Part shown: positions 43,111 to 61,088 of the stretch, one piece after another | Numbering within the stretch: the first letter of the stretch is position 1 | Layout: every line of letters begins with the position of its first letter | Assembly: GCA_963664705.1 (NCBI GenBank) | Contig: OY761556.1 | Location: forward strand, 2,880,001-2,944,000 | Origin: Acidobacteriota bacterium | Lineage (GTDB): Bacteria > Acidobacteriota > UBA6911 | Direction of reading: 5' to 3' | Length of the DNA: 64,000 nucleotides | Position numbers and translations under genes: made by a program | Notes under the pieces: model-generated | What the model saw: the letters and a program-made list of their open reading frames with translations, nothing else | What the model was told of the DNA's origin: nothing | Databases searched by the model: none

Positions 43111-44256
43111 ATGAAGGAAATCCTTAATATCAGCCTTATGCTTCTTTTCTATGCAGGCGGTCAGCCGTATACCGTCAGTGATTATATTATTTCGACAATC
43201 GCTGGAGGCATGAAATCTGTTGGAGACGAACGGGAAGGCGGACCCGCCGAGCAGGCATATTTTGGTTCAATGTTGGGTCTTACGGTAGCTCCTAATGGCG
43301 CGATCTACGTTGCAGATCCAGGAAGGCACAGAATTTGCAAAATCACCCCTGATGGGAAGATGTTTAAGGTTGCGGGTAGAGGCAGCCTCCCGGAACCATG
43401 CTGTATCGAGACATCAGCACGGAAGGGATATCAATTCAGGGTCGAGGGGAAAGCCGCCTTTATTGACGGTGAACCGGCGTCTACCGTTGATCTGGATTTT
43501 CCAATCGGGGTAGCGATCGATATGGATGGTAACACTTACATATCGGATGCATCCAATAACCGCATAAATAAGGTGGATAAAGCAGGACTCATTTACACGA
43601 TAGCCGGTGATGGACTCCCAGGTTATAGCGGAGACGGCGGCCCCGCTAAGCAGGCGCGCCTCCATTATCCAACAGGCATAGCGGTGGACAATTTGGGGAA
43701 TTTATATATTGCCGATAGCGCCAATAATCGCATTCGAATGATCGACTCAAAGGGAATGATTCAGACCATAGCCGGAAATGGAAAATCAAAAGATAGCAAA
43801 AATGGAGATCTTGCAATAAAAGCCAGCCTCAAAAAACCATCCGGAGTTGCAGTTAACGCCAACAACATTGTCTACATTGCAGATAGCGTTGATGCTAGGA
43901 TCAAACGGATTAATCGAGATGGCCGTATTGAATTTGTTGCGGGTACAGGAAGACATGAATTTGTGGGGGACGAAATCCCTGCTATCCAATCGGGACTGTT
44001 TGCGCCCTCTGGCATTGCAATAGACGCGGCCGATAACCTGTACATTGCCGAAACGGGGCGCGTTCGGAAGATTGATCGAAATGGCATCATACACACAATT
44101 GCAGGTGGCGTAACAGCAGCAAGATCACGTCACGACGGCGTTCTTGGCATTCGATCCTACATATTTCCGGATGGGATTGCAGTTGATGCTGCGGGTAAGG
44201 TTTATATTGCGGATCAAGGCACAATCCGCCGCCTCACTGCTGATCACTCCCAATAA
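43111..44256 (+). CDS. NHL-repeat beta-propeller protein
   Basis: Repeated PxGxAxDxxGNxYIADxxNNRIR and TIAG.G..G.SGDGGPA. Confidence 0.9.
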   Translation: MKEILNISLMLLFYAGGQPYTVSDYIISTIAGGMKSVGDEREGGPAEQAYFGSMLGLTVAPNGAIYVADPGRHRICKITPDGKMFKVAGRGSLPEPCCIETSARKGYQFRVEGKAAFIDGEPASTVDLDFPIGVAIDMDGNTYISDASNNRINKVDKAGLIYTIAGDGLPGYSGDGGPAKQARLHYPTGIAVDNLGNLYIADSANNRIRMIDSKGMIQTIAGNGKSKDSKNGDLAIKASLKKPSGVAVNANNIVYIADSVDARIKRINRDGRIEFVAGTGRHEFVGDEIPAIQSGLFAPSGIAIDAADNLYIAETGRVRKIDRNGIIHTIAGGVTAARSRHDGVLGIRSYIFPDGIAVDAAGKVYIADQGTIRRLTADHSQ

Positions 44257-44341: not shown

Positions 44342-44592
44342 TTTTCGCTAGTGATTGTGTGCCCAAAATACTGTCCAAGATAGTGATGAGGCTTTTGATC
44401 CTTGATGCGAGTGGACGAATGTTCATTCCTCGCCTGACCAAGGGAGTCCTCCGTGAATTAGCCCTAGCAGTTCCCGAGTCTTCTTTTCGTTTTCGCTGCA
44501 GTCATGCAGCCAATAAAAGAGAACGTCAAATTGTCATTGCCAAGTGTCTGGCAACGACTGAATTGGTGTCTGTCCTCGATTTTCCCGAATAT

Positions 44593-45918
44593 CTATTGCC
44601 GGATTTCGATCGCGAGATGGCTCCCGACGACGGAGATCCAGTCGTTATAACTAATTTTCGACACGGACCTGATGTGGCGGAAGTTGCACTTGAGCCTTCC
44701 CAATTCAGTGCCGGAATGGTCCTTCATATCAAAAACGAGATATGCGGCGGGATACTCGGCCGTCTTGTCGACAGCATCCAGGTAATACATAACATCCGTG
44801 TCATCCTTGCTCACCAGAAGGCGCTCTGCCAGATTGGCATCCCCCGGACGCCACGAGCAATAGTCCGCCCCTTCCCGCAGCTTGGCTGCCGTGCTGCTCG
44901 ACATTTTCTGATCTGACAGGATCTGGGGAAAACCGATCTTGCCCATCCACGTTTGAGGATTGAAGCTGATTCTAAACTCGTCTTTCCTCACATTGACAAT
45001 CATTGACTGGGCATCCGGTGTCAGCCAGCCGCCTGCAGGCTTCCCCGTCTCGCCATCTGCCAAAGGACCGCGTACAGGTGCGATGACAGATGGTGTGGGT
45101 CCCGGGGAATTGTCGGTCGGAGGCAGCCCCTCATCGCCAAATGACAGATTTACGCTCGTTTGAGCTTCCATCCCATCCGACAGAATGAAATAGGCGGATG
45201 CGCCGAAGCCGAGTTCCTGCCTGCTCAGGACTCCGCGGCGATCCACAATCGACGTCCGGCAAATCAGGAATTGATAGGTCACGTCGTTTGATCTTACAGC
45301 CTTGCATTCCCAGCGATTCGCCACTTCCGGTGCATATTTGTCTTCCCGAGTTGGTGCCATGAGACTGTAAATACCTCCGGACTTTCGTCGACCCGTCAGG
45401 TACAAGTATGGAAGTTCGAAATCATATGTTTGTTTCCTCGAGTCAAAGAAGGCACTTACCGGCGCATTATTATTAACGTCTACCTGACTCAGGGGGATTA
45501 GTCCATCGTGGTAGGCATCCATGCTCGATCCTACGGGAAACTGAGTCGTCACTTGTATCGATCCTCGATCGCCTTTGCAGGACCCCTTGAAGATATACAC
45601 GGACAGATCTGCCTTCGTTTCTTCAAGGCTGTTGCGGCACCAAGCGCCCAGGGTGCGATCTTCATTGAAGAAAGCAACCGTTCTCCACTGTCCTTTGCTG
45701 GCCACGAGATCGGGGCAACGGATCGGTTTAGCCATTTCAAATACGCGCCGAAGATCCTCCTCGCGGAATATGCCGAAGATCTTGTGCAGCTGCTCAAAGA
45801 ATTTTGAGCTAAAGGCGCTTTCATCCGGCTGCGGCAGCTGAAGCTGGCTCTGCGCAAATAGAACCTGGCTTCCGGACATGACAAAGGTAAGTAAAGCTAT
45901 TGCGGTTATTTTCCTAAT
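44593..45918 (-). CDS. Secreted hypothetical protein, probable ATT start
   Basis: 428-aa ORF extended in frame by 13 codons to an ATT after GGAGGA, which completes a signal peptide. Confidence 0.7.
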   Translation of the reverse strand: MRKITAIALLTFVMSGSQVLFAQSQLQLPQPDESAFSSKFFEQLHKIFGIFREEDLRRVFEMAKPIRCPDLVASKGQWRTVAFFNEDRTLGAWCRNSLEETKADLSVYIFKGSCKGDRGSIQVTTQFPVGSSMDAYHDGLIPLSQVDVNNNAPVSAFFDSRKQTYDFELPYLYLTGRRKSGGIYSLMAPTREDKYAPEVANRWECKAVRSNDVTYQFLICRTSIVDRRGVLSRQELGFGASAYFILSDGMEAQTSVNLSFGDEGLPPTDNSPGPTPSVIAPVRGPLADGETGKPAGGWLTPDAQSMIVNVRKDEFRISFNPQTWMGKIGFPQILSDQKMSSSTAAKLREGADYCSWRPGDANLAERLLVSKDDTDVMYYLDAVDKTAEYPAAYLVFDMKDHSGTELGRLKCNFRHIRSVSKISYNDWISVVGSHLAIEIRQ

Positions 45919-46291
45919 GGCGGTCCTCCACTACTTTTCCGGTTCAACCAGATCCTTTGCCGAGATCGATCGGACCGACAATGCTATCACCCTTTGACGA
46001 GTGCAGAAAGACCTTCCGCCCGGGGATGCTATTTGTCGAGGGGGATGCTCGAGTAAGATCGCGCTCCGGAAAGGAGCGGAACTAAAATCTTCGATAGGCG
46101 CGTTAACCGTCCGCTGACAAACCGATTCCAGTCATTGCAGCCTATCCAGCACACGCGCGGATCTCATTAATCCAATGGCTCATATCGTAACTCACACCGG
46201 CGGACTGCATGTCCATAGGAAATCGACTTTGGATGATTTAACTATCGCAAATTGCTAGAATGCTGCGCAAGAGCACTTCGGAGGATCAAAT

Positions 46292-46765: not shown

Positions 46766-46865
46766 GGTCGGTGCCGGTCCCATTTAACTACGCGGAGCGG
46801 CGCAGGCTTTGCGTTATGGCGTTATCTCCGCGAACGCGACATAACCGGCCAATCTCTGCCCGTTT

Positions 46866-48002
46866 TTAGGCTCTGCGGAGTTTGCCCGCCTCTATGATTA
46901 TTTTGGTAAGGCGATTGGAGAGCCGGTTGAGGCATTTGCGTTCAGCACTAATCGGCAGCCCTCGCCGAAACATCTCCATTGCACGTTGAGTTGCGTGCAA
47001 TGAATCGATTACCCCATCTAAACCAGTTCGAATCGGATCCGACGTTCTCGGCTGAGGGACTAAATGTCGAGGTTTTGAATGAGCCAGTTGAAACTCTCTC
47101 TGAAGATCCTTCAAGGCCACTTCGATATAGAGCATTGTCATATTCGGAGAAGTGTGGCCGAGTAATTTCATCAGCACAGGAAAACTGACGCCGGAGCGAA
47201 GCATCTCCGTGGCATAGGTATGGCGAAACTGGTGTGGAACGATGCGAGTGGAGATTTCGAGAGAATAACAAACTTCATGCAGATAATCGCGAAGGCCACG
47301 AACGAGCGCGTACTTGGTGCTGGGCCGCGCCAGAAGTCGACCATCAGGAGGACACGGATCTAGGAAACGAAAGAATCGCAAGCGTTGGATAATCGCGACT
47401 ATCGACGAATCCACCGGGACCATCCGTTCCGTTTTGAGTTTGCCAAGTGGTACGTGAATGGCCCACTGGCGGAGACCAGTCGAGCGGAGGCAATCGACGG
47501 GCAAATCGGCGCACTCGCCAATACGCATGCCGGTATGGCGGAGGAGCAGAAAGACATTCGATCCTAGATCGTTGCGCTTGACGAACTCCTTCTGCAGAAG
47601 CTGATCCTGTTCGGCGGTGAGCGGACGTGCAAGTCTATGCGGGCGGCGCGGAATATCTTCACGACGAATCAGGTGGGCAACTTGAGGAAGCTGTTTGGTC
47701 CACGCCAGTTCTATGAACAGAGGGCGCAAAGCAATGAGCTTACCAATATAGGTAGATGTGGCGAGCGGAGGCGTCTGGGCGCGCAAGTGGGACATCCAGC
47801 CGAGGAGGTGTGGCTCCCGCCGCAGTTGATCTAGGGCGTTTACCTCCGGGTAGTTGGTGCCGAGATAACTAAGGAAGTTACGTACGGTCCCGCGATATTG
47901 GACATGGCTTGCAGAGCCGAGTGCAGTGCAGAGCGAATCGACCGCGCGATCAAAGAGATCCACCAGTGGATGTGAGAGGGGAGGACGCCAGGAGCGTTTC
48001 AT
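46866..48002 (-). CDS. Tyrosine recombinase 2
   Basis: TGMRIGE, KLKTER, HQFRHTYAT, LLGH...MTMLY; ATGA overlap with the upstream recombinase. Confidence 0.95.
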   Translation of the reverse strand: MKRSWRPPLSHPLVDLFDRAVDSLCTALGSASHVQYRGTVRNFLSYLGTNYPEVNALDQLRREPHLLGWMSHLRAQTPPLATSTYIGKLIALRPLFIELAWTKQLPQVAHLIRREDIPRRPHRLARPLTAEQDQLLQKEFVKRNDLGSNVFLLLRHTGMRIGECADLPVDCLRSTGLRQWAIHVPLGKLKTERMVPVDSSIVAIIQRLRFFRFLDPCPPDGRLLARPSTKYALVRGLRDYLHEVCYSLEISTRIVPHQFRHTYATEMLRSGVSFPVLMKLLGHTSPNMTMLYIEVALKDLQREFQLAHSKPRHLVPQPRTSDPIRTGLDGVIDSLHATQRAMEMFRRGLPISAERKCLNRLSNRLTKIIIEAGKLRRA

Positions 48003-49045
48003 GAAGGAAGCCTCGGAAGGGGGCGGACTTGCAGCGCTACTGCGCGCGTATACTGCTGGTAAACGTCTTGTGGTGTGATCTGCACATAATGCAGGGTCGT
48101 CTGGATATCGGAATGCCCCATCAACTGCATAAGTGCCGGCAGGCTGATTCCGGCGCGTATCATATCGGAAGCGAATGTGTGCCGGAAGCGATGTGGGTGA
48201 GCAAGCGGAATGCCAGTGTGCTTGCGATGGTAACGGAACAATGACCGCAGTCCGGCCAGAGTCATACGGAACCCGCGGGCCGGTCCCTTGAGCGAGACGA
48301 AAAGCGCAGCGGTGGCAACCTGGGGTCGTTCCCTCCGCCGATAGTGGTCGAGGAGTTGCACTGTCTCCGGCGCCAGTGGCAGTAAGCGTATTTTGTTACC
48401 CTTGCCGCGTACGCGCAGCTGCGCTTCGGAGAGCAACAAGTCGTCCTCATTCAGCCCCAACACTTCGGCCGAGCGAAGCCCTTGAAGAAGCATTACTCCT
48501 ACGAGAGCCAAATCGCGAGCCGTACGGAAACTGGACCAAAAACGCGCCACCTCGTCCACCGAAAGCGGAACAAGTTGGCGTTTGGGCACTTTCACTCGCA
48601 GCCGGCTTATGGCTAGGCGCCGACGGCCTAGGCCCAGCGGTCCACGCCGCAAATAAACATGTTGGAAGCCCTGTGCCATGGACGATGGGGAGTCGGGGAA
48701 CTGGTTGCGAAGAGCACGATCGGCAACGCCAACACGGTGATTGATTGTGTAACTGGAAATCGGGGGTTGGTGGTTACACTGGAACTTCAGATAATCCTGG
48801 AGAGTCGATTCGGTCAGGTCGGCTGTGCAAACCTCAGCGGTGTGATGAAGACTCTCCCACCAGCGAACAAAATGTAGCAGGTAGTAAGCCCATGCTCGCA
48901 GAGTAGTATCCGCCAACCGACGGACATACTCGTGATCAAGGTAGCGATTGATCCAGCCAACCTCCTGACCGGTTTCTTGCTCGACCACACGAACCGGGCT
49001 TTGTGCTGTGTTGCGAATCTGCGGGCGAATCACACAAAATTTCAT
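47999..49045 (-). CDS. Tyrosine recombinase 1
   Basis: GLRSAE, GKGNK, HRFRHTFAS, MGHSDIQTTLHY; probable start MKFCVIR. Confidence 0.95.
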   Translation of the reverse strand: MKFCVIRPQIRNTAQSPVRVVEQETGQEVGWINRYLDHEYVRRLADTTLRAWAYYLLHFVRWWESLHHTAEVCTADLTESTLQDYLKFQCNHQPPISSYTINHRVGVADRALRNQFPDSPSSMAQGFQHVYLRRGPLGLGRRRLAISRLRVKVPKRQLVPLSVDEVARFWSSFRTARDLALVGVMLLQGLRSAEVLGLNEDDLLLSEAQLRVRGKGNKIRLLPLAPETVQLLDHYRRRERPQVATAALFVSLKGPARGFRMTLAGLRSLFRYHRKHTGIPLAHPHRFRHTFASDMIRAGISLPALMQLMGHSDIQTTLHYVQITPQDVYQQYTRAVALQVRPLPRLPS

Positions 49046-49082
49046 AGCTGAGCCAAGCTCCAGAAAAGAATGTGTATCAGAG

Positions 49083-49400
49083 TCAGGCAGCAGGAAGTTC
49101 AAGTACCTGGTAGACTCCATCTTTGAATGCGATCAGATCTCGCGTCAGGAGTTCATCACGGGCGCCGGTAAGTTCGTGGCGGTGATGAATCTCGAGGAGT
49201 TCCGCCATACGTTCGTCGGAATAAAAACTCACACCATCCCGATTAGCAACAGCGACCAAGATTAAGTAGAGAAGCTTTTCCAATCGGGTTAGTCCCTGAT
49301 CGAAACCCTGCCGAAAAAAACGATGGTCAATCCAACTGAAAGAACCGCGGATGGTGCGGATTCGATCCGGCTGTAGTGGTTGAGGTCGTTTGTTCATCAT
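49083..49400 (-). CDS. Small element-encoded protein, possible winged-helix DNA-binding protein
   Basis: 105 aa, FSWIDHRF...LLYLILVAVA.RDGVSFYSD....LL...YQVL.LP; co-oriented upstream of the recombinases. Confidence 0.7.
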   Translation of the reverse strand: MMNKRPQPLQPDRIRTIRGSFSWIDHRFFRQGFDQGLTRLEKLLYLILVAVANRDGVSFYSDERMAELLEIHHRHELTGARDELLTRDLIAFKDGVYQVLELPAA

Positions 49401-49479
49401 GCTTTCCCCATTTTGTACATGCCGAAATTAACGAAGCTATATGGAATGAATCAATATGTCGGGACTAAATCTAAAAAGC

Positions 49480-49983
49480 TCATGGGCGGCTGGGGCAACG
49501 ATCCGACCAACGTCTCTCTCGTTCCAGAACTCGTTCGAGAGCGCGGCGACATGCATAGGAACAGAAGCGTTGCAGGGGCGACCGCCGGCTGCGGTGGAAT
49601 TCTTGGTATCAACCAGGGCGATCGCAGGAACACGAAAATAAATTTCTTATAATGACCCTCGCGTCGCCGGCCGGGCCCTTGTTTTGTTGCGTGCGCTCCT
49701 TTTGCCGCACTCTGTATCTGTGGCTTTGAACGCGGCGAACCTGCTTTCCACCATCAGTTTTGCGGTACTTTTGCCGGGCTTTCCACTCTCTCCATTTTCC
49801 CGCCTCATTGCGGCAATGCTCGCTACAATAGCGTGCTCGGGGGTGTTCCGGCCGGAATATGCGACCGCAGCCTTTCAGCAAACACGCACGGGCGCGCGGC
49901 CATCTGGCTTTTCGCTTGGTATGGGGTCTTGTTCCTTTTGCTTGATTTTGAAGGAGAATTATCGGATGTTCACGAGGGCCCAT
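49480..49983 (-). CDS. Basic protein with two Cys4 zinc-finger-like motifs, interrupted by an in-frame TGA at 49609-49611
   Basis: CLLKGC..F......YCSEHCR, then CDRPG*YQEF......RFCSYACRR continuing in frame for 42 codons. Confidence 0.65.
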
Positions 49984-50348
49984 GGGAGTTGCCTCTCCCA
50001 GAAGCTCAAGCCTCGAGGGGGACCCATTCCCCTTCGGGGCGCACTGAGCACAATTGGATGCAATATCCTTAACCCTGCTCTTAGATTAGGATCGGAATTA
50101 AAACTGGCGGGATTACTCGTAAATCAAATTCAATTTTCCGAGCAGTCATAGTCCTTTGGGGTTGTAATTGCGGAGCACCCGAAAAAAGGCGGAGAAGAAT
50201 AAGGGAAAAGCTATTTATCTCACTTCATAATTTGAAGATTCACGGAAATTCTTTATAGACCATTTTTGATTATTGGCCGGTTATTTTGGACTTCGTGGGA
50301 GTAAGCCGAAAAAATCAAATACTTACACTTGATGGTACAATGATGTCG

Positions 50349-50876
50349 ATGCGGAAAAACTCTCTAATTGTATCCATAATCTGCTGGTTGTGCTTAGGCA
50401 TGAGTTCCAGCACTGCGTCGCCGAAGAACAAAAGATACTGTATTTCATCAGTAAACCAAGTTTCAGCAGCCCTGGCTGCAAGAGATTATCCAGCACTCGC
50501 AAAATTGTCTGCGCGAGTAATCGAGCAATGTGTTGAAACTCTTGATGGGGAGACTGTTGCTGGACTTTATGCCAATCTTGCCATCGCACACAATGAAATG
50601 GAAATGCCTCAACTTGCTCTCAAGGATTGTGAATTGTGCATTGATAAATTCAACGGGGATCCATTGTGCCATAGAGAGAAAGTAAGGGCTTTGATTGCGC
50701 TGCATCGCGAGAAAGAAGCTTTATCGCATTGCACAATTGCTGAAAAAATGACATCAGATCTTATGGAGCAATATAAGAAAAAACTTGATAGCGGCCAAAA
50801 CGAACTGACCAAGTCTCGTCTAAGTCTGGTTAATGCTGTGCGGATGTATTTGTTCCGAGTCTGTCCGCCAAAATAG
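50349..50876 (+). CDS. Secreted helical (TPR-like) hypothetical protein, cassette gene
   Basis: Signal-like N-terminus; TPR-like YANLAIAH..ALKD; lies between two class A sites. Confidence 0.6.
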   Translation: MRKNSLIVSIICWLCLGMSSSTASPKNKRYCISSVNQVSAALAARDYPALAKLSARVIEQCVETLDGETVAGLYANLAIAHNEMEMPQLALKDCELCIDKFNGDPLCHREKVRALIALHREKEALSHCTIAEKMTSDLMEQYKKKLDSGQNELTKSRLSLVNAVRMYLFRVCPPK

Positions 50877-50905
50877 CCAAGATTTATCTGACCATGATGC
50901 TAATT

Positions 50906-50944
50906 TACATTTTGGCGTCATCTCCCGCAATCGGACTTCTGGAC
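50906..50944 (+). repeat. Class A site
   Basis: TACATTTTGGCGTCATCTCCCGCA|ATCGGAC|TTCTGGAC; 23 bp identical to 55534-55556. Confidence 0.85.
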
Positions 50945-50995
50945 CGGAATACTTTGGGATTTCGCAAATGGCGGATCAGCATCGGTTCAGGTAGA

Positions 50996-51400
50996 ATGAT
51001 TTTGTTAGATTATTTACTCCCACCCATTGCTTATGTCAAAAAGAGCGCAGCAAAAGTCAAAGGGTCTATTGAAGACTTTATTGATCTGCAGGAACACCGA
51101 TTAGATCCCGGTTATTGGACAACTGAGGTCTATGGTAAAGGGCGTAGATTTCCCATCTCGAAGGATGTTTTGCGGCAGCACCTTTCCAGTTTCCAACGGG
51201 CGCTTATGATTTTCGTTTTACTCTGCCCCATCGTTATTGGTTTGTTTCTGAAATTCGGAAATCAGCTTCAGCATCTCTGGTTCTGGGGTTCGATATCGCT
51301 TGTCGGCTTGTTTCTCGGACTCTGGCTCTTTATGCACAGATCAATGATCCGTAACGGATGCATACCAACCGCAAGGGGCGACAAAATAGACCGCACATGA
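50996..51400 (+). CDS. Hypothetical two-TM protein, cassette gene
   Basis: ORF 50894..51400, restarted at the first ATG after the site. Confidence 0.5.
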   Translation: MILLDYLLPPIAYVKKSAAKVKGSIEDFIDLQEHRLDPGYWTTEVYGKGRRFPISKDVLRQHLSSFQRALMIFVLLCPIVIGLFLKFGNQLQHLWFWGSISLVGLFLGLWLFMHRSMIRNGCIPTARGDKIDRT

Positions 51401-51435
51401 CGGGTCCAGCTAAAAGATGTGATAACGGCCGGATG

Positions 51436-51468
51436 GGTTACTTCCTCGAATCCGACTTCAGGACAATT
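51436..51468 (+). repeat. Class A site
   Basis: GGTTACTTCCTCGA|ATCCGAC|TTCAGGACAATT. Confidence 0.8.
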
Positions 51469-51543
51469 GCACCGGGCCTTATAGATAATGACGCCGATTT
51501 GTGAAATCATATAAGTGATTCCCTGTATCGTGAGCAAACACTT

Positions 51544-52173
51544 ATGTCCAAGTGGAACACACCTTCCGGTCTTCTGGTACTGTGTTTGTTTGTGTGCTCG
51601 AATTGCCAGCATTCCACCAAAAACGAGGAACTCGGTGTCTACTCTAGCTACTCTGACAAATATCTGATGGAGGACCTCGTTTACCATCTTCCCTACGATA
51701 TTGTGGTCCTTAGCGATCACACAGTGGAGTTGCCTTGCTTCATCATAGAGGATTTCAGCCGATTGTCACCTCATCCCAACCCGAGCACAATATCAAACTT
51801 TTTGATTCGTAACGGAGCACAGCACTTGGCTCATCTGACTTCAAGTGATTGCAATGGTAGCATTCACGGCACCGCATATCCCATCAAGAATAAGATCGTC
51901 TCGCGAGCCAATTTGGTGTTCATTCCAGCATCTGCAATTAATGAAGAATACAACCGAATACCGTGGCCTGAGATTTGTAAGCGACACGGAATACCGAACC
52001 CGCAACTTAACCATGGTCCGGTCATCCTGTCACGTATCGGATTCAACGAGCAGCGCACGGAGGCACTATTATACGTGGAGGATCATGCTGCTGGCGTCGG
52101 CGCATTATTCTTATTCATGGCAACATCGACGGGGTGGACTGAAAGGGCATCGGTAGGGTGCTGGGTTTCATGA
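51544..52173 (+). CDS. Hypothetical secreted protein or lipoprotein, cassette gene
   Basis: Hydrophobic N-terminus with Cys; C-terminal LSRIGFN...EALLYV...W......WVS. Confidence 0.7.
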   Translation: MSKWNTPSGLLVLCLFVCSNCQHSTKNEELGVYSSYSDKYLMEDLVYHLPYDIVVLSDHTVELPCFIIEDFSRLSPHPNPSTISNFLIRNGAQHLAHLTSSDCNGSIHGTAYPIKNKIVSRANLVFIPASAINEEYNRIPWPEICKRHGIPNPQLNHGPVILSRIGFNEQRTEALLYVEDHAAGVGALFLFMATSTGWTERASVGCWVS

Positions 52174-52257
52174 ATTTCCCAATAAACAAAACAGAAAACA
52201 GGATCTGCTACCAAAGTGACTCCTCATACTTTCGAGGAGATCTGACGTGTGCGTACC

Positions 52258-52285
52258 GATTTCCCACAATCGGACTTATGGGGAC
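52258..52285 (+). repeat. Class A site
   Basis: GATTTCCCACA|ATCGGAC|TTATGGGGAC. Confidence 0.8.
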
Positions 52286-52395
52286 CGTTATCCGGCGGAT
52301 GTGATAACATCGCCATCCTAACCGATGCGGATGTCGCCGCGTTGCAGAAGAAAGGCACATAAATCAGTACTGTCACTTACCCGACCGAGGCGCTC

Positions 52396-52911
52396 ATGCG
52401 GAATATATGCTATATCCTAATCGTCTTTGTGTTCTGCTTATTGCCTGTCCATTTCATACTGGCTCAAGAAAACACTATGGCTGTAAACAATAATATTTAC
52501 GCCGTTTCCTTGAAGGTTGGGATAGAAGAGATGAAAAAGCAATGGGACCAAATCGATGATAGTATGGGTGGCGAACGCGTAAGAACTGATTACAAAGATG
52601 TCATAGTACAACAGGATACTTTTATTACCGGTCACCTCCCATCGATGCTCGGAGACAGCCGAATTCAGTATTTAGATCACGATCAGTTGATTGCAAGATT
52701 CAAGAAACTGAAAAAATGTTTTTCGAGTTTGGTGATTCAGCCAGCCGAAATTGACAACGATCGGATTAAGGTTACTGTTACCGTTTATTGGATCAGCTAC
52801 AAAAAGCGAATGCTGCAATGTGCTCTTTCAGATTGGAGCACTGCCTATTTTCGTTTCGATTGTAATGAACGCAAGTATGTTTTCGACAAGGTTGAATTGG
52901 GCGGTATCTGA
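52396..52911 (+). CDS. Secreted hypothetical protein, cassette gene
   Basis: RBS GAGG; signal peptide; stop 4 nt before the next site. Confidence 0.7.
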   Translation: MRNICYILIVFVFCLLPVHFILAQENTMAVNNNIYAVSLKVGIEEMKKQWDQIDDSMGGERVRTDYKDVIVQQDTFITGHLPSMLGDSRIQYLDHDQLIARFKKLKKCFSSLVIQPAEIDNDRIKVTVTVYWISYKKRMLQCALSDWSTAYFRFDCNERKYVFDKVELGGI

Positions 52912-52914
52912 ATC

Positions 52915-52946
52915 GGATTCTTTCCCATAACGCGACTTCTCAGGAG
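52915..52946 (+). repeat. Class A site
   Basis: GGATTCTTTCCCATA|ACGCGAC|TTCTCAGGAG. Confidence 0.7.
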
Positions 52947-53041
52947 CCAGCGAGAAAATTGTGGATTTCCAGAACTCTTTGCGACCACCAAAGCATTTAT
53001 TTGATAGGTGACTGTGGCTTCTATTGTCGATACGGATTTGC

Positions 53042-53998
53042 TCAGGGGTGAATTACTGCGTATCGGAAGTCCATCTGCTCTCTTTCAATGCCCTGCGAAA
53101 CAATCTGGATCGCGTAGATGGTTTGAGTATCTTCGAGAGTCCGGGCCAAGATCGTTTGGCCGACTTCTACCTGAATGGATTGCTCTCCAGCCCAATTTAT
53201 GCGGGTCTCGTCACCATGGGGATCGAATAGACCATAGAACTTTGCCTTCAGCATCGTGCCCTTCAGTTTTGTGATCGGTACGTCACAATGAGCAAATGCC
53301 CAAAAGGGAGACCAGCGCGAACGCTCCATTTTTTCGAAATAAAAATAGCCTGTCTTACCTGGATTGCCCTGGCTCCATTGAAGCTTATTACCATTCAGGT
53401 CAAGCCAAACTGCCTGATTCCTACCGCCCTCTGTGCTAGCTTGACGTATTTCACCCAGCGTGATCGGACCTTTGGATTTGAACCACACGGATGTTCGATC
53501 GTCGACCGCTTTCTCCAGAAGCCGCTTTTCTGTGAGAATCCGCCGATATTCCTTATCGACTTCAAAGAGGTAGCGCGAGAAAACGATTTGGACTTGTTCC
53601 TTCAACACTTTGCTGTCCAGGTCGGAAAATCTGAAATTGGACGGCAATGGCACAACCGAGAGCTCGGGAACCGCCAGAAAATCGCTGCCCATTCTACTTC
53701 CGCCCAAGCTGGACAACATGTATATGCGGCCCTTTTGAATCGGGTATAGCGAAGCGATCCGCAGTTCACCAGGCTTTCGGTTGCCCTTGAGCACCTTCAC
53801 AACTTTGACCTTTGCCGCTTGGAGTCCATCGGTGTCGACGTCGACCTTCTCTGCCTCAATTGAGATGCATTCCGCTATGATGATATCCTGGGCCCGCGCG
53901 ATGTAGCTGTCAGTGTCTTCGAATAAGGTGACTTTGATTGCGAATAGGGAGGACGCGCTCAGGCACAGCATCAATGTCGAAATAAGCCCTTTTTGCAT
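53042..53998 (-). CDS. Secreted hypothetical protein, cassette gene
   Basis: 318 aa with signal peptide ending LFA. Confidence 0.7.
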   Translation of the reverse strand: MQKGLISTLMLCLSASSLFAIKVTLFEDTDSYIARAQDIIIAECISIEAEKVDVDTDGLQAAKVKVVKVLKGNRKPGELRIASLYPIQKGRIYMLSSLGGSRMGSDFLAVPELSVVPLPSNFRFSDLDSKVLKEQVQIVFSRYLFEVDKEYRRILTEKRLLEKAVDDRTSVWFKSKGPITLGEIRQASTEGGRNQAVWLDLNGNKLQWSQGNPGKTGYFYFEKMERSRWSPFWAFAHCDVPITKLKGTMLKAKFYGLFDPHGDETRINWAGEQSIQVEVGQTILARTLEDTQTIYAIQIVSQGIEREQMDFRYAVIHP

Positions 53999-54194
53999 AG
54001 CCTTACCCCAATAAATCCACTCGCTTGAGACGAGTGCGAATTCCGTGTATCAGCATGGTTATGTTGTTAACGGACGTCTTGCCAATTTGATGCAAACACC
54101 CAGCAATTGTTCCGTTAAGAATAGCCCTGCTGTAATACTTTTGTTAGAAAAATTCGATTCCGCATGGAACGCTCAATTATCGGTGTGGCGGCGA

Positions 54195-54225
54195 GGCAAC
54201 TTCCTCGATTCCGACTTCCTGGGAC
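54195..54225 (+). repeat. Class A site
   Basis: GGCAACTTCCTCGA|TTCCGAC|TTCCTGGGAC. Confidence 0.8.
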
Positions 54226-54291
54226 TAATCCGGCCGCAGTGCTAAAATGCTTTGTAAAAAGGCGGCTGCAATCTTGTTACCATAACGGATC

Positions 54292-55461
54292 ATGCTGATA
54301 CCTATGGCTGAAGAGCAATGCAATTATGAAAGACTCTCAGTGGCACAGCGAGCGGCTTTGCGCATCGTATCCGATCGCGCGTCCCTCCTGGAATCCCAGG
54401 CTTACTCCAAATTGCCATCGCTTTTGAGGAACTGCGGTTGTGTCGAGGGCATGTTTGATGAAGCCATGCAGAGCATCCGCGCGAATGCAAGAGTAGCCGT
54501 GCATTTTCATCCTGACCGATTCGGTTCAAAGCCGTTAACCGTTGCTGAATCTCTTCTGAATGAGGGGCTCTACCTGAATCAATTTGAGACAGGCCTGTCG
54601 AGTGGTGGACGATCCGCGTTTCCCGGCGGTGATCGAGATCGATGGGAGAGAGACCTTTTTGGCGGCGCCTATCATGCTCCGGGTGTAACGGCAGCTGAGC
54701 GACCAAAGTATGGAGCGCTGATGCTGGTGCGCCATCCGGACGGGCCAACACCGCGTTTTGGTTCCTGCTATTTCATTCTTCGGCAATCCGTCTCCAATCG
54801 TTGCACGTTCACATTTTCAGGGAGTGAGCAAGCACTTGCGATTAAGCGTCTTGGGACCATGGAAAAGATGCTTAGCGTGATGGTGGCGTTACTGAGCGAA
54901 GTGGCGAGTGGTGAGGGCACAAAAGTTCCCTGGCCGCCATACGTAACCTCGACATTGGGCATTGAAAGCGTGACCATCGCTCAACTCCTCAATGTTTTTT
55001 GTCGGGATTTGTCCCTTCCCCCGACGGATCCTTCTACGGGAAAACCGGGACGCGTGCTGGATTCATGCGTTGAAGCGCAGGTTCATGGACCGATCGATTT
55101 GCGCTGTGACATTGAACAGCTTGTCGTTGACCCATCATTTGATGGAACTCCGATCGGAGAGACACTGATCGAAATCTCTCGAAAATACGATATTCCGATC
55201 CAGTATCATTGCGGATTTCAGCTTTCCATTCATGATGTCCCTGACAATTTTCGAGGCCCTGAAATGCCACGGCTTGCACGACGAATTGCGCTGAAGGGAC
55301 TAATGAATGCAGCCGTAATCGGTGCTGCCGAGGCCACTCTATGCTGGAAGCCTGAAACCTGGCAAGACTGGGGATCCTATGAGGAATCATTGCAACATCT
55401 AAAACAGCTCTGGCATGTGGTGGTGCACTATGGGAGCCCGCAACAGCAAGACAGTGCCTGA
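54292..55461 (+). CDS. DUF3626-like protein, cassette gene
   Basis: HFHPDR, NQFETGLSSG, RPKYGAL, RFGSCYF.L, EAQVHG, LKQLWH. Confidence 0.75.
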   Translation: MLIPMAEEQCNYERLSVAQRAALRIVSDRASLLESQAYSKLPSLLRNCGCVEGMFDEAMQSIRANARVAVHFHPDRFGSKPLTVAESLLNEGLYLNQFETGLSSGGRSAFPGGDRDRWERDLFGGAYHAPGVTAAERPKYGALMLVRHPDGPTPRFGSCYFILRQSVSNRCTFTFSGSEQALAIKRLGTMEKMLSVMVALLSEVASGEGTKVPWPPYVTSTLGIESVTIAQLLNVFCRDLSLPPTDPSTGKPGRVLDSCVEAQVHGPIDLRCDIEQLVVDPSFDGTPIGETLIEISRKYDIPIQYHCGFQLSIHDVPDNFRGPEMPRLARRIALKGLMNAAVIGAAEATLCWKPETWQDWGSYEESLQHLKQLWHVVVHYGSPQQQDSA

Positions 55462-55489
55462 CATCACCTAGTGGGTAAACCGATTTGAA

Positions 55490-55518
55490 TTTCTAATAAA
55501 CGGCAATCGCAGAGACGG
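55490..55518 (-). repeat. Class B site (degenerate)
   Basis: - strand CCGTCTCTGCGA|TTGCCGT|TTATTAGAAA. Confidence 0.55.
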
Positions 55519-55535
55519 CACAATCAAGGCTTCTT

Positions 55536-55576
55536 TACATTTTGGCGTCATCTCCCACAATGCGACTTCCTGGGAC
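55536..55576 (+). repeat. Class A site (best match to consensus)
   Basis: TACATTTTGGCGTCATCTCCCACA|ATGCGAC|TTCCTGGGAC. Confidence 0.9.
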
Positions 55577-55647
55577 TTTCGAACATTTTTCCAATTTGGG
55601 TAGGCATTATTGGGCCTTTTACGTTCTTGTCATCAGGAACCCGTGAT

Positions 55648-55676
55648 GTAATCCCAGATCCGGACTCTATTGGGAC
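55648..55676 (+). repeat. Class A site
   Basis: GTAATCCCAGA|TCCGGAC|TCTATTGGGAC. Confidence 0.6.
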
Positions 55677-55734
55677 TGTTTGAAATTAACACGTTTGATC
55701 CCGTGAGAAGCCGTTCTTATTTGCAGGAGCACAA

Positions 55735-56361
55735 ATGAACCGAATTCACCCTGTCGTGATTGCTTTTGCAGCCTTAATGTTTGCATATTGTCTTTGTGCA
55801 TTTGCGGGGGCTCCATTTCCAATGATTAGAGCAAGTAGTTCAAGCAATGGAAAGTTCCTCGTAATTGCGGAATACCAATATGAGAATCCCGCTGAAACAA
55901 TAAGACGGATCAACAAAATCATTTATCACGTGGATCAAAGGGAAGACTTCATTAATGATCAGTTCACAACCCTAGCTGCATACTGGTCGGATTCAGGGTC
56001 TTGGAATGTCCACCTCGATTGGCCTAAAGGAGTAATGGGAGGGCTATTGCCTTACATTTCCGATGATGGAGAGATTTTAGTTTTTATATCAGTTACGCCG
56101 CCCTTTTCGGGTATAGAGATTTTAAAAATTTATCGAAAAGACGGAAATCAAGGTGCGATGCTTAAGGCTTATCAGCTGAAGGATATTTGGACACCAGCGG
56201 AGATGAACTCACACGCTGATCTTATTTCCAATGGCCGACCATTATGGTTTACAGGGGGAAGTTTCAGTTTTTCGTCAGACAATCAGCAATTTATTCATAA
56301 GACTCCGTGGGGAAAAATAATTCGCATCAATTTGCAGGACGGTTCTGTTTCTAGAGAATAA
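55735..56361 (+). CDS. Secreted hypothetical protein, cassette gene
   Basis: RBS AGGAG; signal peptide ending AFA. Confidence 0.75.
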   Translation: MNRIHPVVIAFAALMFAYCLCAFAGAPFPMIRASSSSNGKFLVIAEYQYENPAETIRRINKIIYHVDQREDFINDQFTTLAAYWSDSGSWNVHLDWPKGVMGGLLPYISDDGEILVFISVTPPFSGIEILKIYRKDGNQGAMLKAYQLKDIWTPAEMNSHADLISNGRPLWFTGGSFSFSSDNQQFIHKTPWGKIIRINLQDGSVSRE

Positions 56362-56393
56362 ATCTGAGTAGCCATTTGAGGGCAGTGATTAAC

Positions 56394-56429
56394 CATTTGG
56401 CGTTATCTCCCACAACGCGACTTCAGGAT
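56394..56429 (+). repeat. Class A site
   Basis: CATTTGGCGTTATCTCCCACA|ACGCGAC|TTCAGGAT. Confidence 0.9.
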
Positions 56430-56509
56430 AAGAGCTTTCTTCCCAATCACTATTATGTTAGGCCAGGCAAGTTATATAATGACTGCACTCGGAGCAGACA
56501 GGAGTTGTT

Positions 56510-56677
56510 ATGAATACTGCACTTCTTTTTGTCGCAATGATAGGAAGTTCGGTTGCGACTGCTTGCGTTGCCGCAGCAAAACATAGGAGTGTCATTTTGT
56601 GGACGATTATAAGTTTAACTATTCCAATCCTGCCCTTGATCGTAGTACTCATCTTGCCAAGCAAGACTTCCGGATAA
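56510..56677 (+). CDS. 55-aa two-TM microprotein, cassette gene (not in the ORF track)
   Basis: TATAAT at 56475, RBS AGGAG, MNTALLFVAMIGSSVATACVAAAKHRSVILWTIISLTIPILPLIVVLILPSKTSG*. Confidence 0.65.
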   Translation: MNTALLFVAMIGSSVATACVAAAKHRSVILWTIISLTIPILPLIVVLILPSKTSG

Positions 56678-56710
56678 ACGGCCAGAACCGACGCAAGGAG
56701 GAGGAATTTG

Positions 56711-56751
56711 CATTGTGGCGTTATGTCCTCGAATCGGACTACAGGACAATT
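56711..56751 (+). repeat. Class A site
   Basis: CATTGTGGCGTTATGTCCTCGA|ATCGGAC|TACAGGACAATT. Confidence 0.85.
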
Positions 56752-57479: not shown

Positions 57480-57729
57480 TTAACCGGCCAATATTGCACG
57501 TATTATGGAATTTCCCCATGAGATTTGGATAGGAAATCAGCTAAATAGCTTGTCCCATATTCTTCTTTTTTCTTCTTCAGATTTGATGCGAGCGGCTTAT
57601 TTACAGGGTGCTGCGACCAGCAAAAATGCGGGCCTACTTATCCACACATATTGGTTCTTGATCGTGTTATAGTCAAAGAAGCAATAGACTTCGCATACCC
57701 TGAAAAACTGGCAGAGATTGGCCGGTTAA
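57480..57729 (+). mobile_element. 250-bp non-autonomous relative of the dual-recombinase element, inserted in a class B site
   Basis: TIRs TTAACCGGCCAAT and ATTGGCCGGTTAA; 57710-57728 is the exact reverse complement of 46842-46860; 57539-57566 matches the reverse complement of 50193-50220 at 25/28. Confidence 0.85.
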
Positions 57730-58538: not shown

Positions 58539-58771
58539 GCTTTGAAATCTCCTCCACCGAAACAAATTCGATAGAACCGTTGTCATACACTCGATAAATA
58601 GCCCTGTATGCTCGGCTCAATCGGATAGATCGCTGCCCCATTCGGTTGCCATGCAGGGGCTCGTCATGATAGACATAATGGAGTGATCGGTCTCTAGCAT
58701 GTAATATCGTGGGTTACAGCTGAAGTCGTGGTGACGAAGCTGCAGAGCCATAAAACATGAGGAGACCGATC

Positions 58772-59866
58772 ATGGCAGATTGTATCACTTGGGTAGGGAT
58801 GGATGATTCAGCAAAAAAGATAAACGTCGCAATTTTTCGCGGGCAGGAAAGTAACCCTCGAGAAGAACTTGTTGTATCAAACGACAGTACGGGGCTGGGT
58901 CGGTTAGCGAAAAAGCTAAGGGCATTTGAAGATGATGTACGGTGCGTCTACGAAGCGGGCGTTAATGGATACTATTTGCAGCGCTATTTGGCCAAACATG
59001 GGATTTCTTGTGAGGTTGCGGCCCCTTCGTTGACTCCGAGACGAGCGGGGAAAAAAGTAAAAACGGATAAGCTGGATGCGAAAGCCTTGGGCAAATTGTA
59101 CCGAGCGGGAGAACTAACATGTATTGTGATCCCGCAAAAAGAACAGGAAAGTCTGCGAGATCTGGTGCGTGCGCGAGAAGACGCATTGGAAGACCAGCAG
59201 CGAGCACGGCATCGATTAGCACGGTTTCTGATGCGACGTGGATTGAAATATCCGCAGGGCAAGAACTGGTCGCTTGGGCACCTAAAGTGGATTAAGAGCC
59301 TTGTGTTTGAGGATGATGGGGATCAAACAGTACTGGAGGAATATCGACAGGCGCTTGAGCAACAGACGGAGCGGTTGAAAACATTCCAGGGAAAAATCGA
59401 GGAAGTTGCAAAACAGCCGAACTATCAAAAGCGAGTCAGCTATTTGATGGCGCTAAAAGGCGTTCAGGTTCTGACGGCGATGACGATTATCGCAGAAGCG
59501 CTCGATTTAAGACGGTTCGTTGATGCGCCTTCGTTTATGGCCGCTATTGGGGTGGTGCCTTCGGAAAGCAGCTCAGGTGAACTTGAAAGACGGGGAAGGA
59601 TAACCAAAACGGGAAACAGCCACCTACGTAGGGTGCTGATCGAAAGCGCCTGGCACTACCGTCATTCTTCAGTAGCTGGCAAAACTCTCAAGAAACGACG
59701 AGAGTGTTTGCCGGCAGAAGTTATCGAGATTGCACAACGTTGCGATAAGCGATTGAATCAAAAATTCCGACGCATGCTCAACCGAGGGAAAGAAAGACAA
59801 AAGATCGCGGTTGCGGTAAGTCGAGAATTGGCAGGATTTATCTGGGCTATCGGTCGTGTTGCATGA
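58772..59866 (+). CDS. IS110-family transposase/recombinase
   Basis: VGMD, YEAG, KTDKLDA (DEDD), GVVPSESSSG, ITKTGNSHLRRVLIESAW, VAVSREL. Confidence 0.95.
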   Translation: MADCITWVGMDDSAKKINVAIFRGQESNPREELVVSNDSTGLGRLAKKLRAFEDDVRCVYEAGVNGYYLQRYLAKHGISCEVAAPSLTPRRAGKKVKTDKLDAKALGKLYRAGELTCIVIPQKEQESLRDLVRAREDALEDQQRARHRLARFLMRRGLKYPQGKNWSLGHLKWIKSLVFEDDGDQTVLEEYRQALEQQTERLKTFQGKIEEVAKQPNYQKRVSYLMALKGVQVLTAMTIIAEALDLRRFVDAPSFMAAIGVVPSESSSGELERRGRITKTGNSHLRRVLIESAWHYRHSSVAGKTLKKRRECLPAEVIEIAQRCDKRLNQKFRRMLNRGKERQKIAVAVSRELAGFIWAIGRVA

Positions 59867-59939
59867 CATAAGGCACCAGCTCTTGCAGCTATTTTGTTCT
59901 TCAATGGATTAATAACGGAAACATTCGGTTAGTGAACGG

Positions 59940-60125
59940 AACAGGAGATCGAGTTCCAGGCTTCGAAAGGAGAAACCTCGACCTGGCTATGTTGGTATGG
60001 GAAACCAGAATCCACGGAAGTAGAGTGAGGCCGCTCCCGATGAATCAGTTGTCATGCGTGCTTATCGACCCGCGAATATCAGATTGATTATCGTCGCTGT
60101 TGCCAACTCGATCCCCTGTTCTTTT
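59940..60125 (+). ncRNA. Putative bridge/seek RNA in the IS right non-coding end (boundaries approximate)
   Basis: Enclosing stem AACAGGAGATCGAGTT...AACTCGATCCCCTGTT; contains target match ACCTGGCTAT (59981-59990) and donor match ATATCAGA (60076-60083). Confidence 0.65.
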
Positions 60126-60361
60126 TACTGGCTGATTTATTTATGAACCGAAGAAAACCAAAATGAACGAACAAGGAACGGATTGATTGTACTTGACCGA
60201 TCACTCCATATCAGCCAGGTATTTTTCTCACCTCTTCGAGTCCACGCTCCTCAACATCTTCCACCCAGGCGGCGAGGTTTTCCACGATGTGACGTGGTAC
60301 CGTTTGCAGCTGCTTACGCGCTCGCTTGCTTAGCTCCACCTGCAATATCATATCGATTCTA

Positions 60362-60433: not shown

Positions 60434-60463
60434 GACCCTAAGAAACGGCATTCGGAGAAACTA
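60434..60463 (-). repeat. Class B site (last copy before the tRNA)
   Basis: - strand TAGTTTCTCCGA|ATGCCGT|TTCTTAGGGTC. Confidence 0.65.
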
Positions 60464-61014
60464 CTCTTGCCATCCAAAATCGCAATAAGGAGAGTCTTTT
60501 CTTTTGTGTGTGAATAGGAATTTGCACTTTGTTCTATTCAAACGAATCCGACTGATTGTTCATTTCTTTCACATTGTTTCACTGTTATTCAAATTACCTT
60601 GAATATGGCCCCTTCGACAGGCTCATGAATCGCCATCCACAAAAATTCATCAATACGCCACGGACAAAAAATACCTCTGAACTTGCCAGGTAGATGAAAG
60701 CAAGGGAGGTAGAGCAATAATGAATGTTGCCCACAGGTGATTGCTCTAAAGAGAACCACTTCCCTGCCCTGGCCGGAAATAGCAACCGACGCGTTCTATG
60801 GATTGCCTGGAAACCGGAAAACTGGAAAGGGCCCTGGCTTTCGGGATTAGCGCTGGTGAGATCGGCCGGGATCCGGAAGCAAACAGAATGTGGGAGGAAG
60901 TTTATGCCTCTCGCTGAGGGATGGCCTCTCCCTCCCTGCCCCCAAGGAGGATTTGAGCAATGAAAGGTCAGAGGGGTTCCAAGCTAAAGGCAAGCAAAAT
61001 AATCACTTGTAGAG

Positions 61015-61088
61015 TGCGCCTGGGGTGACTCGAACACCCGGCCCACGGTTTAGGAAACCGTTGCTCTATCCACCTGAGCTACAGGCGC
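61015..61088 (-). tRNA. tRNA-Arg(CCT), CCA not encoded
   Basis: GCGCCTGTAGCTCAGGTGGATAGAGCAACGGTTTCCTAAACCGTGGGCCGGGTGTTCGAGTCACCCCAGGCGCA folds as a cloverleaf; anticodon CCT. Confidence 0.97.

Follow-up and report, generated by a model that had tools for sequence, protein, structure and literature searches.

A compact Tn554-related transposon with a fixed spacer splits dif-like array sites in an Acidobacteriota genome, probably as a parasite of the array

Introduction

A 64,000-nucleotide stretch of an Acidobacteriota genome (assembly GCA_963664705.1, contig OY761556.1, forward-strand positions 2,880,001 to 2,944,000; here called the window) carries an array of short dif-like sites, one of which is split at its core by a compact mobile element with two tyrosine recombinases. 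Is this element the array's own recombinase module or a parasite specialised on the sites, and by which steps could it move? An initial annotation had left open which of these two roles it plays. With a probability of about 0.68, we read the element as a Tn554-related transposon that inserts at dif-like site cores, carries a fixed spacer, moves as a circle, and is a parasite of an array that is likely served by the host Xer recombinases. Below, G000 denotes the host genome studied, other G-numbers denote other genomes, and L-numbers denote fetched loci.

Results

The element and its position in array sites

The element and its junctions comprise the following features, in window coordinates.

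46841 to 50284: element proper, 3,444 bp between perfect 13-bp inverted ends, plus a carried 7-mer
46841 to 46853, plus strand: gene-downstream terminal inverted repeat, 13 bp; this end and about nine more bases are conserved family-wide
50272 to 50284, minus strand: gene-upstream terminal inverted repeat, 13 bp
46824 to 46834, plus strand: left arm of the occupied array site, with a 7/11 match to the XerC-side arm of the host dif
46834 to 46840, plus strand: the target's own 7-mer, ACGCGAC (6-bp central region 46835 to 46840), which varies among the four copies
50285 to 50291, plus strand: carried spacer TTTGGAC, identical in the four copies, L001, and four mini-derivatives of relatives
50292 to 50302, plus strand: right arm of the occupied array site

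The mobile element is real. The initial annotation had placed it at 46813 to 50307. Both junction strings proved exact (46817–46853 and 50272–50307), and we revised the bounds to the element proper and its carried 7-mer. Removal of the element restores a site composed of left arm, core, and right arm, with the same build as the unoccupied sites. A target-site duplication was ruled out, as that annotation had held, because the flanking 7-mers ACGCGAC and TTTGGAC agree only at GAC.

The inverted ends match perfectly over 13 bp and show no similarity past this length. The exact 13-mer occurs eight times in the 6.9 Mb genome, every time at an end of one of four copies of the element, and the other three copies share 99.7%, 93.4%, and 93.1% identity with the one in the window. 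All four copies are located at the core of an array site (one of about 46–60 sites) in a single orientation, three of them in site clusters outside the window. The confinement of the 13-mer to the copy ends, together with the placement of 4/4 copies at array sites, excludes a chance origin. An 82% identical element was detected at L001, in an Acidobacteriota metagenome-assembled genome (MAG), on the same contig as in G492 of the host genus. The G492 copy occupies a lone site with no array around it.

A fixed spacer and a three-base match to the target

The right 7-mer was TTTGGAC in 4/4 genome copies and in L001. The left 7-mers of the four copies were ACGCGAC, ATGGGAC, ACGCGAC, and ATCGGAC, which resemble unoccupied cores. 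Sister copies in G491, G471, and G279 also showed one carried 7-mer per genome, with left cores that differ in G491 and G471. To extend the comparison to relatives, we examined 87 loci of tyrosine recombinase 2 (YR2), in most of which the terminal inverted repeat lies just after YR2; 41 showed both ends, and 32 of those had enough flank. In these 32 loci, with three rows of doubtful register kept in, the two 7-mers agreed at positions 5, 6, and 7 in 29, 30, and 30 cases (shuffled: 20.9, 10.2, and 23.1) and at positions 1 and 2 in only 3 and 4 (shuffled: 9.3 and 6.3). The constant right 7-mers and the agreement at positions 5–7 indicated that the spacer is the element's own, and that only its last three bases need match the target. 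Judged from the loci aligned, this rule holds family-wide.

Small derivatives follow the same rule. Fourteen host-genus cases are two-ended, non-autonomous minis of 183–435 bp, and 14/14 share the last three core bases with their spacer, which is TTTGGAC in four of them. Minis in this size range were detected in nine other host-genus genomes; they are non-coding and occupy array sites, and no cargo gene was found among the cases read. The window itself holds one.

57480 to 57729, minus strand: 250-bp non-autonomous mini bearing the ends of the element; its target site has a CGT-ending core, which the spacer it carries, TTCCCGT, matches

The earlier suggestion that the array sites are real recombination substrates is borne out for the element, by 4/4 copies and the 14 two-ended minis of the genus. 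The element thereby provides natural evidence that dif-like array sites are live recombination substrates.

Two further loci were noted. A distant 3.3-kb member with a winged-helix gene (L355, G458:C46) has CGGTGAC on both sides, a 7/7 match. An unoccupied site at G000:C1:5876385 has the core TTGGAC, corresponding to the element's own spacer, and may be what an excision left behind; over 300 bp, the sequence preceding this site matches window 50637–50944 at 86%.

The recombinases belong to a Tn554-related lineage

The four co-oriented genes previously claimed are all on the minus strand, and no transfer genes were found in the element. Two of the four encode tyrosine recombinases.

46866 to 48002, minus strand: YR2, 378 amino acids, grouping as sister to the long (TnpB-like) pBD2 recombinase but lacking that protein's long N-terminal extension
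47999 to 49120, minus strand: tyrosine recombinase 1 (YR1), 373 amino acids as called, sister to the short (TnpA-like) pBD2 member; 4-nt overlap with YR2

The alignment of YR1 homologs begins only at residue 23–25, and its true start is therefore probably the Met at 49045, giving 348 amino acids. Both proteins match PF00589 above the cut-off and keep the catalytic R/K/HxxR/H/Y residues attributed to them. The YR1 and YR2 sets are R216/K243/H310/R313/H336/Y345 and R160/K190/H257/R260/H283/Y292, and the second set is invariant across 26 homologs. The best plasmid matches of both recombinases were actinobacterial pairs, such as that of Rhodococcus plasmid pBD2, with 35% and 30% identity to the pBD2 pair. 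YR2 aligns to residues 169–478 of the 564-amino-acid pBD2 protein. A quick tree, which included the pBD2 pair and not Tn554 itself, placed YR1 with the short pBD2 recombinase (Shimodaira–Hasegawa-like approximate likelihood ratio test, SH-aLRT, 97) and YR2 with the long one (99). In this tree, the recombinases group with the actinobacterial Tn554-related pairs, and we read the element as a compact, multi-copy member of the Tn554-related two-tyrosine-recombinase lineage.

YR2 homologs numbered 4,069 among the 7,999 candidates scored. A single-protein scan of genome contigs returned only 2 loci, and in phylum samples with 4–8 candidates scored per genome, YR2 was found in 2/400 genomes and the zinc-finger protein described below in 2/400. 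Viral contigs yielded one element (L095); the zinc-finger gene was not found in the viral contigs searched. An Rfam search gave no credible match.

Array sites and the host Xer system

A profile built from 34 sites retrieved 46 sites in the host genome, forming five clusters and one solo, with no orientation bias relative to the replichore (22 versus 24). The unoccupied sites of the window are as follows.

Starts at 50920, 51440, 52259, 52920, 54199, 55550, 56405, and 56723, plus strand: eight unoccupied array sites of 28 bp in the same orientation

Within 50920 to 56750, mostly one gene lies between neighbouring sites. A second site class has the same arms, a core ending in CGT, and mostly the opposite orientation; the triplets at which array cores are fixed, GAC or CGT, are also those of the carried spacers. 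On the minus strand, CGT-class sites at 44246 and 58143 of the window, and probably one at 60437, are inverted relative to the GAC class and roughly bracket the array. Cassette genes are common to the arrays of different genomes, with homology that stops near the sites (for example, window 44535–46058 versus G490, 86%).

The likely chromosomal dif was placed at 2,036,985–2,037,012, close to the GC-skew maximum and xerD, and the host dif pattern was present in 46/51 family genomes. We compared sites with dif in an 11+6+11 register, naming the XerC-side and XerD-side arms by what we take to be the usual dif convention. The array left arms match the XerC-side arm at 6.6/11 (n = 34) and, in relatives, at 7.1/11 (n = 58), where random sequence gives 2.9. 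In the host genus, G220 carries 12 extra near-canonical dif sites among accessory genes (seven regions fetched), which appear from their sequences to be a chromosomal dif-module system. The G220 sites on C18, C23, C44, C47, C59, and C63 (L311–L316) have conserved flanks and cores of the CGGCCA/T or CGCCCT type. In G496, an array-type core adjoins a canonical XerD arm. XerC and XerD are the closest recombinases common to four array-bearing genomes (G000, G490, G489, and G488). No recombinase gene was common to the array neighbourhoods compared from G000 and seven relatives. By inspection, no IntI-like protein occurred among the host PF00589 matches, the top ones being XerD and XerC. Host XerC/XerD is, on this comparison, the likeliest array engine.

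In approximately half of the sites, AATT-x-x-CA followed by TTTTGGCG extends the site upstream (window 50899–50919, 55529–55549, 56384–56404, and similar). This extension resembles a −35 box, with a CACAAT-like −10 following in the left arm after about 16 bp, and the pair may act as a promoter for the cassette.

Distribution favours a parasite over an array engine

Array sites were found in 34/50 host-family genomes, with single weak matches in 6/86 others of the class; these counts of the site model are lower bounds, with 38 candidates scored per genome. YR1 homologs were present in 8/50 family genomes. The element end pattern gave 33 matches in 18/137 class genomes, all of the host family, and ends were present in 17/50 family genomes. 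G490, which is 99% complete in about 10 contigs, contains 24 sites without a YR1/YR2 homolog and without an element end, and G220 has its dif-like sites without a recombinase homolog or element end. Because arrays occur in close relatives in which these recombinases and the element's ends were not found, the element is probably a parasite of the cassette system rather than its engine. Of the two roles left open by the initial annotation, specialised parasitism is favoured, and the array's own recombinase module is disfavoured by sites in 34/50 against recombinases in 8/50 genomes and by G490, whose 24 sites stand without either trace.

The context of the ends also separates the host genus from other genera. 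Across 27 loci outside G000, with two matches lacking a locus, the arms adjoining host-genus ends (16) match the XerC arm at 7.4/11, as opposed to 3.3/11 in other genera (12). Array-site targeting is thus a trait of the lineage, which is what a parasite would be expected to show, and the specialisation looks derived. The refuting observation proposed earlier, insertion of homologs at unrelated sequences, came out divided: distant homologs do have loose or unrelated targets, whereas the genus-level lineage is site-specialised.

Could the element nevertheless also be the engine, with a recombinase that binds the arms and moves cassettes in trans, and with arrays that outlive a lost element? The family targets are loose palindromes like the array arms, array cores and carried spacers have their fixed triplets in common, ends reach 17/50 family genomes, and three of the four host copies lie in site clusters outside the window, all of which would suit this idea. 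It is countered by G490 and G220, by the G492 copy at its lone site outside any array, by the random-level arm matches at which relatives in other genera insert (3.3/11, n = 12), and by the lack of a cargo gene in the minis read; we regard it as improbable. An alternative that leaves the element a parasite is that the arrays are served by a dedicated recombinase, neither Xer nor the element's, for which a divergent tyrosine recombinase missed by PF00589, a shared island integrase, or another enzyme class are candidates. The poor conservation of the XerD-side arm and the distance of most sites from the terminus argue for it. The absence of a common recombinase gene beside the arrays (G000 and seven relatives) and of an integron integrase, with XerD and XerC as the top PF00589 matches, argues against it, as does the continuum with dif formed by the near-canonical G220 copies and the G496 site. 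This alternative carries some weight as a minority view, and we prefer Xer as the server of an array parasitised by the element.

Several observations weigh against the preferred reading. The array right arms match the XerD-side arm at only 4.8/11 (random 2.9), vary in length, and fit a mirrored XerC arm as well or better (5.2–5.9/11); with so weak an arm, Xer is at most the likely engine. An integrase of what we presume to be the tRNA-island type is also common to the same four array-bearing genomes, with 46–56% identity. Minis in G488, G489, and others record past visits to genomes now without recombinases. G490 may likewise have held the element in the past, and the relatives are incomplete MAGs. 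The three-base rule is broken in 2–3 of the 32 relatives, partly through mis-registered ends, and in a decayed G459 copy. The circle joint and the empty site were not seen in the material, which consists of contigs only and hence provides no test of them; the candidate joints that did turn up are accounted for by sister copies and other sites.

A one-strand exchange could account for the fixed spacer

We propose that the moving form would be a circle joined through TTTGGAC. The recombinases would cut a single strand, the bottom one, at the core's right-hand edge beside GAC, both in the circle joint and in the target. A target core of the form NNNNGAC and the circle would then swap strands across the three matching bases, which would allow re-ligation. 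The other four bases would never be exchanged, and replication would resolve the junction to leave the target core on the left and the element core on the right. The observed layout, target 7-mer at the left and element 7-mer at the right, fits one-strand exchange followed by replication. The same one-strand exchange between the two ends would copy out a circle that again holds TTTGGAC, and the spacer would perpetuate itself for that reason. The primase carried by most relatives (see below) would suit a single-stranded circle that needs priming.

A two-strand cut-out and paste-in with a 3-bp crossover core, after which the four heterologous bases are repaired or segregated, was weighed against this scheme. 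Two catalytically intact recombinases could cut both strands, and the unoccupied site at G000:C1:5876385 is a possible scar of excision. That scar is a single case, and resolution of a heteroduplex should sometimes swap the sides, which was seen in none of the 4 copies, 6 sister copies, and 14 minis. Two-strand movement seems quite improbable to us. If the one-strand scheme is right, the element indicates where, and on which strand, array sites are probably cut.

The zinc-finger gene contains a candidate selenocysteine codon

The gene at the upstream end had been described as encoding a double zinc-finger protein. The gene stands; its second finger is complete only if an internal TGA is read through.

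49480 to 49983, minus strand: double C4 zinc-finger gene, 167 codons with the internal TGA read through, 124 amino acids otherwise
49609 to 49611, minus strand: in-frame TGA, candidate selenocysteine codon, at an invariant Cys column
49572 to 49592, minus strand: candidate selenocysteine insertion sequence (SECIS) hairpin; its GGTC loop begins 25 nt after the TGA

The TGA lies in the motif CDRPG-x-Y, and the frame is open for 42 codons beyond it, completing the second C4 finger. Of 120 zinc-finger homologs, 68 have Cys at the TGA column, 2 have a stop, and 50 lack the motif. In 43 of these 50, the annotation runs off-frame after a T run, and the shifted frame puts a TGA at this place in 40 cases, a Cys in 2, and nothing in the last; the TGA/Cys column is otherwise invariant. 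Across 27 sequences, variation beyond the TGA is concentrated at the wobble position of the finger frame, with 26 versus 14 variants where 77 versus 131 were available, and 11/15 differences between G000 and G459 show the same preference. The host carries selenocysteine machinery (two selA, two selD, and three tRNA-Sec calls) and 35 UGSC-family genes, 31 of them with TGA, and by these gene calls its genome is unusually selenoprotein-rich. A hairpin motif drawn from these host genes was present 25 nt past the TGA in 6/6 TGA copies, 0/3 Cys homologs, 6/30 host selenocysteine genes, and 2/1,415 TGA ends of open reading frames. The GGTC loop, the 25-nt spacing, and the minimum free energy of −9.6 of the candidate SECIS agree with the bSECIS model (PMC13188914), although its stem is short. 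Taken together, these observations make it likely that the TGA encodes selenocysteine, in which case the second finger would depend on selenium supply.

Other points count against selenocysteine. The hairpin motif was picked after inspection, and four of the six TGA copies are from the host genome. The apical stem is only 3 bp above the internal loop (4 bp below), weaker than in most host SECIS elements. Since selA was present in 5/5 relatives tested, including both Cys-bearing ones, it fails to separate TGA from Cys hosts. In copy 2 (G000:C1:5027145-5027441), the zinc-finger gene is frameshifted upstream of the TGA, although this copy and that of the window are 99.7% identical. The alternative is a true stop, or one leaked by a near-cognate tRNA, with residual downstream conservation. 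The weak stem, the extra +1 frameshift needed by many homologs at the T run just upstream, and the 5–6 non-synonymous differences in some pairs speak for it; the TGA inferred in 40/43 off-frame homolog clusters, the wobble-skewed variation, and the host-type SECIS motif in TGA copies and not in Cys homologs speak against it. We consider a true stop rather unlikely. A broader idea is offered tentatively, and we lean against it: a transposon specialised on an integron-like cassette system driven by host Xer would read a three-base core code, through its self-perpetuating spacer, to select between site classes, and its mobility would be gated by a selenocysteine-liganded zinc finger, so that a transposon-encoded selenoprotein would tie movement to selenium supply.

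A conserved T run precedes the second finger, with a +1 shift in many homologs (L162/G459, L164/G463, and L165/G063). The G459 gene needs both the shift and readthrough; in G463 and G063 the shift is needed and the column holds Cys. The shift is probably a programmed frameshift or transcriptional slippage, to judge from the conserved run. In G463, the Cys form lies upstream of ParB-like and IS21-type transposase genes. G490 (L167/L168) has about 15 copies of a 3.3-kb IS21-like element in which istA is preceded by a zinc-finger segment of weak relationship; one of these copies is inside a site array, off the core.

Discussion

Comparison with known systems

pBD2 is listed as Tn554-related (Van Houdt et al. 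2012, PMC3414803). Like the element, actinobacterial Tn554-related tnpAB(C) units have two adjacent co-oriented recombinases of both clades, are multi-copy, and lack transfer genes. They differ in the second recombinase (564 amino acids in pBD2 and 611–828 in PMC3414803, versus 378 here), and the present element and its relatives add two accessory genes upstream (DUF6431 and primase in most relatives) and a fixed spacer. No TnpC/DUF6262 gene was found downstream, where the end follows 12 bp after the stop, and blastp gave no match to the pBD2 DUF6262 protein; TnpC is missing in some Tn554-related members (PMC3414803).

The analogy to Tn916/Tn554 coupling sequences, drawn earlier, holds for the heterologous bases and not for their source: there they are picked up from the previous flank, and here they are fixed. 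In SE/Tn554 elements, the left 6 bp of the donor go to the new right flank, and the footprint changes with each hop (PMC10214605, PMC9345347), whereas the spacer here returns to the same side unchanged. SE elements share four genes, two active recombinases, inverted ends of 13–19 bp, heterologous 6–7 bp at the junctions, and, probably, a one-strand copy-out circle with a spacer from the gene-upstream end. They differ in their Tfp and Srap genes, which are not present here, in targets without inverted-repeat structure, and in their hosts. Membership in SE was rejected on the gene set (intA-tfp-intB-srap versus zinc finger, winged helix, and two active recombinases, with no inactive recombinase-fold gene).

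By analogy, the IS1202 subgroup, which targets Xer sites, is the closest ecological parallel. ISAba32 and ISAjo2 also insert in fixed orientation at many dif-like sites, including gene modules (bioRxiv 10.1101/2022.12.17.520857, PMC10132070). These have DDE transposases, insert next to the site at a distance of 5 bp, duplicate the target, and leave the site intact, whereas the element here splits it centrally. A precedent for the exchange proposed here is CTXphi, which integrates by exchanging one pair of strands on homology at one side, the product being resolved by replication (PMC3442271). Such integrative mobile elements exploiting Xer (IMEX; CTXphi, VGJphi) likewise target a dif-type site where only one side of the overlap is homologous, and differ in their use of host XerC/D and a dif-like attP. 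IMEX membership was rejected on the two own recombinases with intact residues and on ends unlike dif; a helper role for Xer is possible.

The arrays resemble Acinetobacter pdif/dif modules and chromosomal dif module islands, where many dif-like sites also flank few accessory genes away from the terminus (PMC12907356), and differ in their mostly direct repeats, degenerate arms, and cores ending in a fixed triplet. RIT elements are similar in size (approximately 3.5 kb), copy number, overlapping recombinase genes, and terminal inverted repeats (PMC3414803, PMC10214605, PMC5737581); RIT membership was rejected, with two recombinases and 13-bp repeats here versus three and 28–34-bp repeats there. 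Integron membership was also rejected, the element recombinases scoring 39–42 bits against a TIGR02249 cut-off of 265, with no IntI recognised. Solibacter has 27 phage-integrase genes, and the part of that report covered describes no such element (PMC3469429). We found no paper on this element family in a search that left most subscription journals and supplements outside.

Meaning of the spacer rule and the zinc finger

A fixed spacer together with a three-base match makes a simple rule that departs from the footprint documented for SE/Tn554, and it points to an integration tool that could be retargeted. The 3.4-kb unit and the 185-bp minis make it possible to test how multi-recombinase transposons move, a long-open question. 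If the transposon's zinc finger does contain selenocysteine, it would represent a selenoprotein of a new kind. Literature searches found no other such case, and the main text of a 2026 review (supplements excluded) does not mention transposons, mobile elements, or DNA-binding.

Accessory genes and the end of the array region

The remaining gene of the element lies between YR1 and the zinc-finger gene.

49083 to 49400, minus strand: predicted winged-helix protein of 105 amino acids, with 891 homologs

Its single-sequence fold was poor (predicted local distance difference test, pLDDT, 50). The alignment-based fold (pLDDT 71) gave many winged-helix matches, none with E ≤0.001, a generic fold match. 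Among 50 loci typed, 41 (two of them truncated) have DUF6431 with a CHC2-Toprim primase; a primase stands alone in 4 and accompanies a weak zinc finger in 2; 2 have a zinc finger with a winged helix, as here, and 1 has only a winged helix. In most relatives, a DnaG-type primase thus lies in the slot of the winged-helix gene, and the protein modelled here may fill that slot.

A multi-copy IS110-family element (window 58670–60219; about 7 times single-copy depth) and a tRNA-Arg gene (61014–61088) are situated at the end of the array region.

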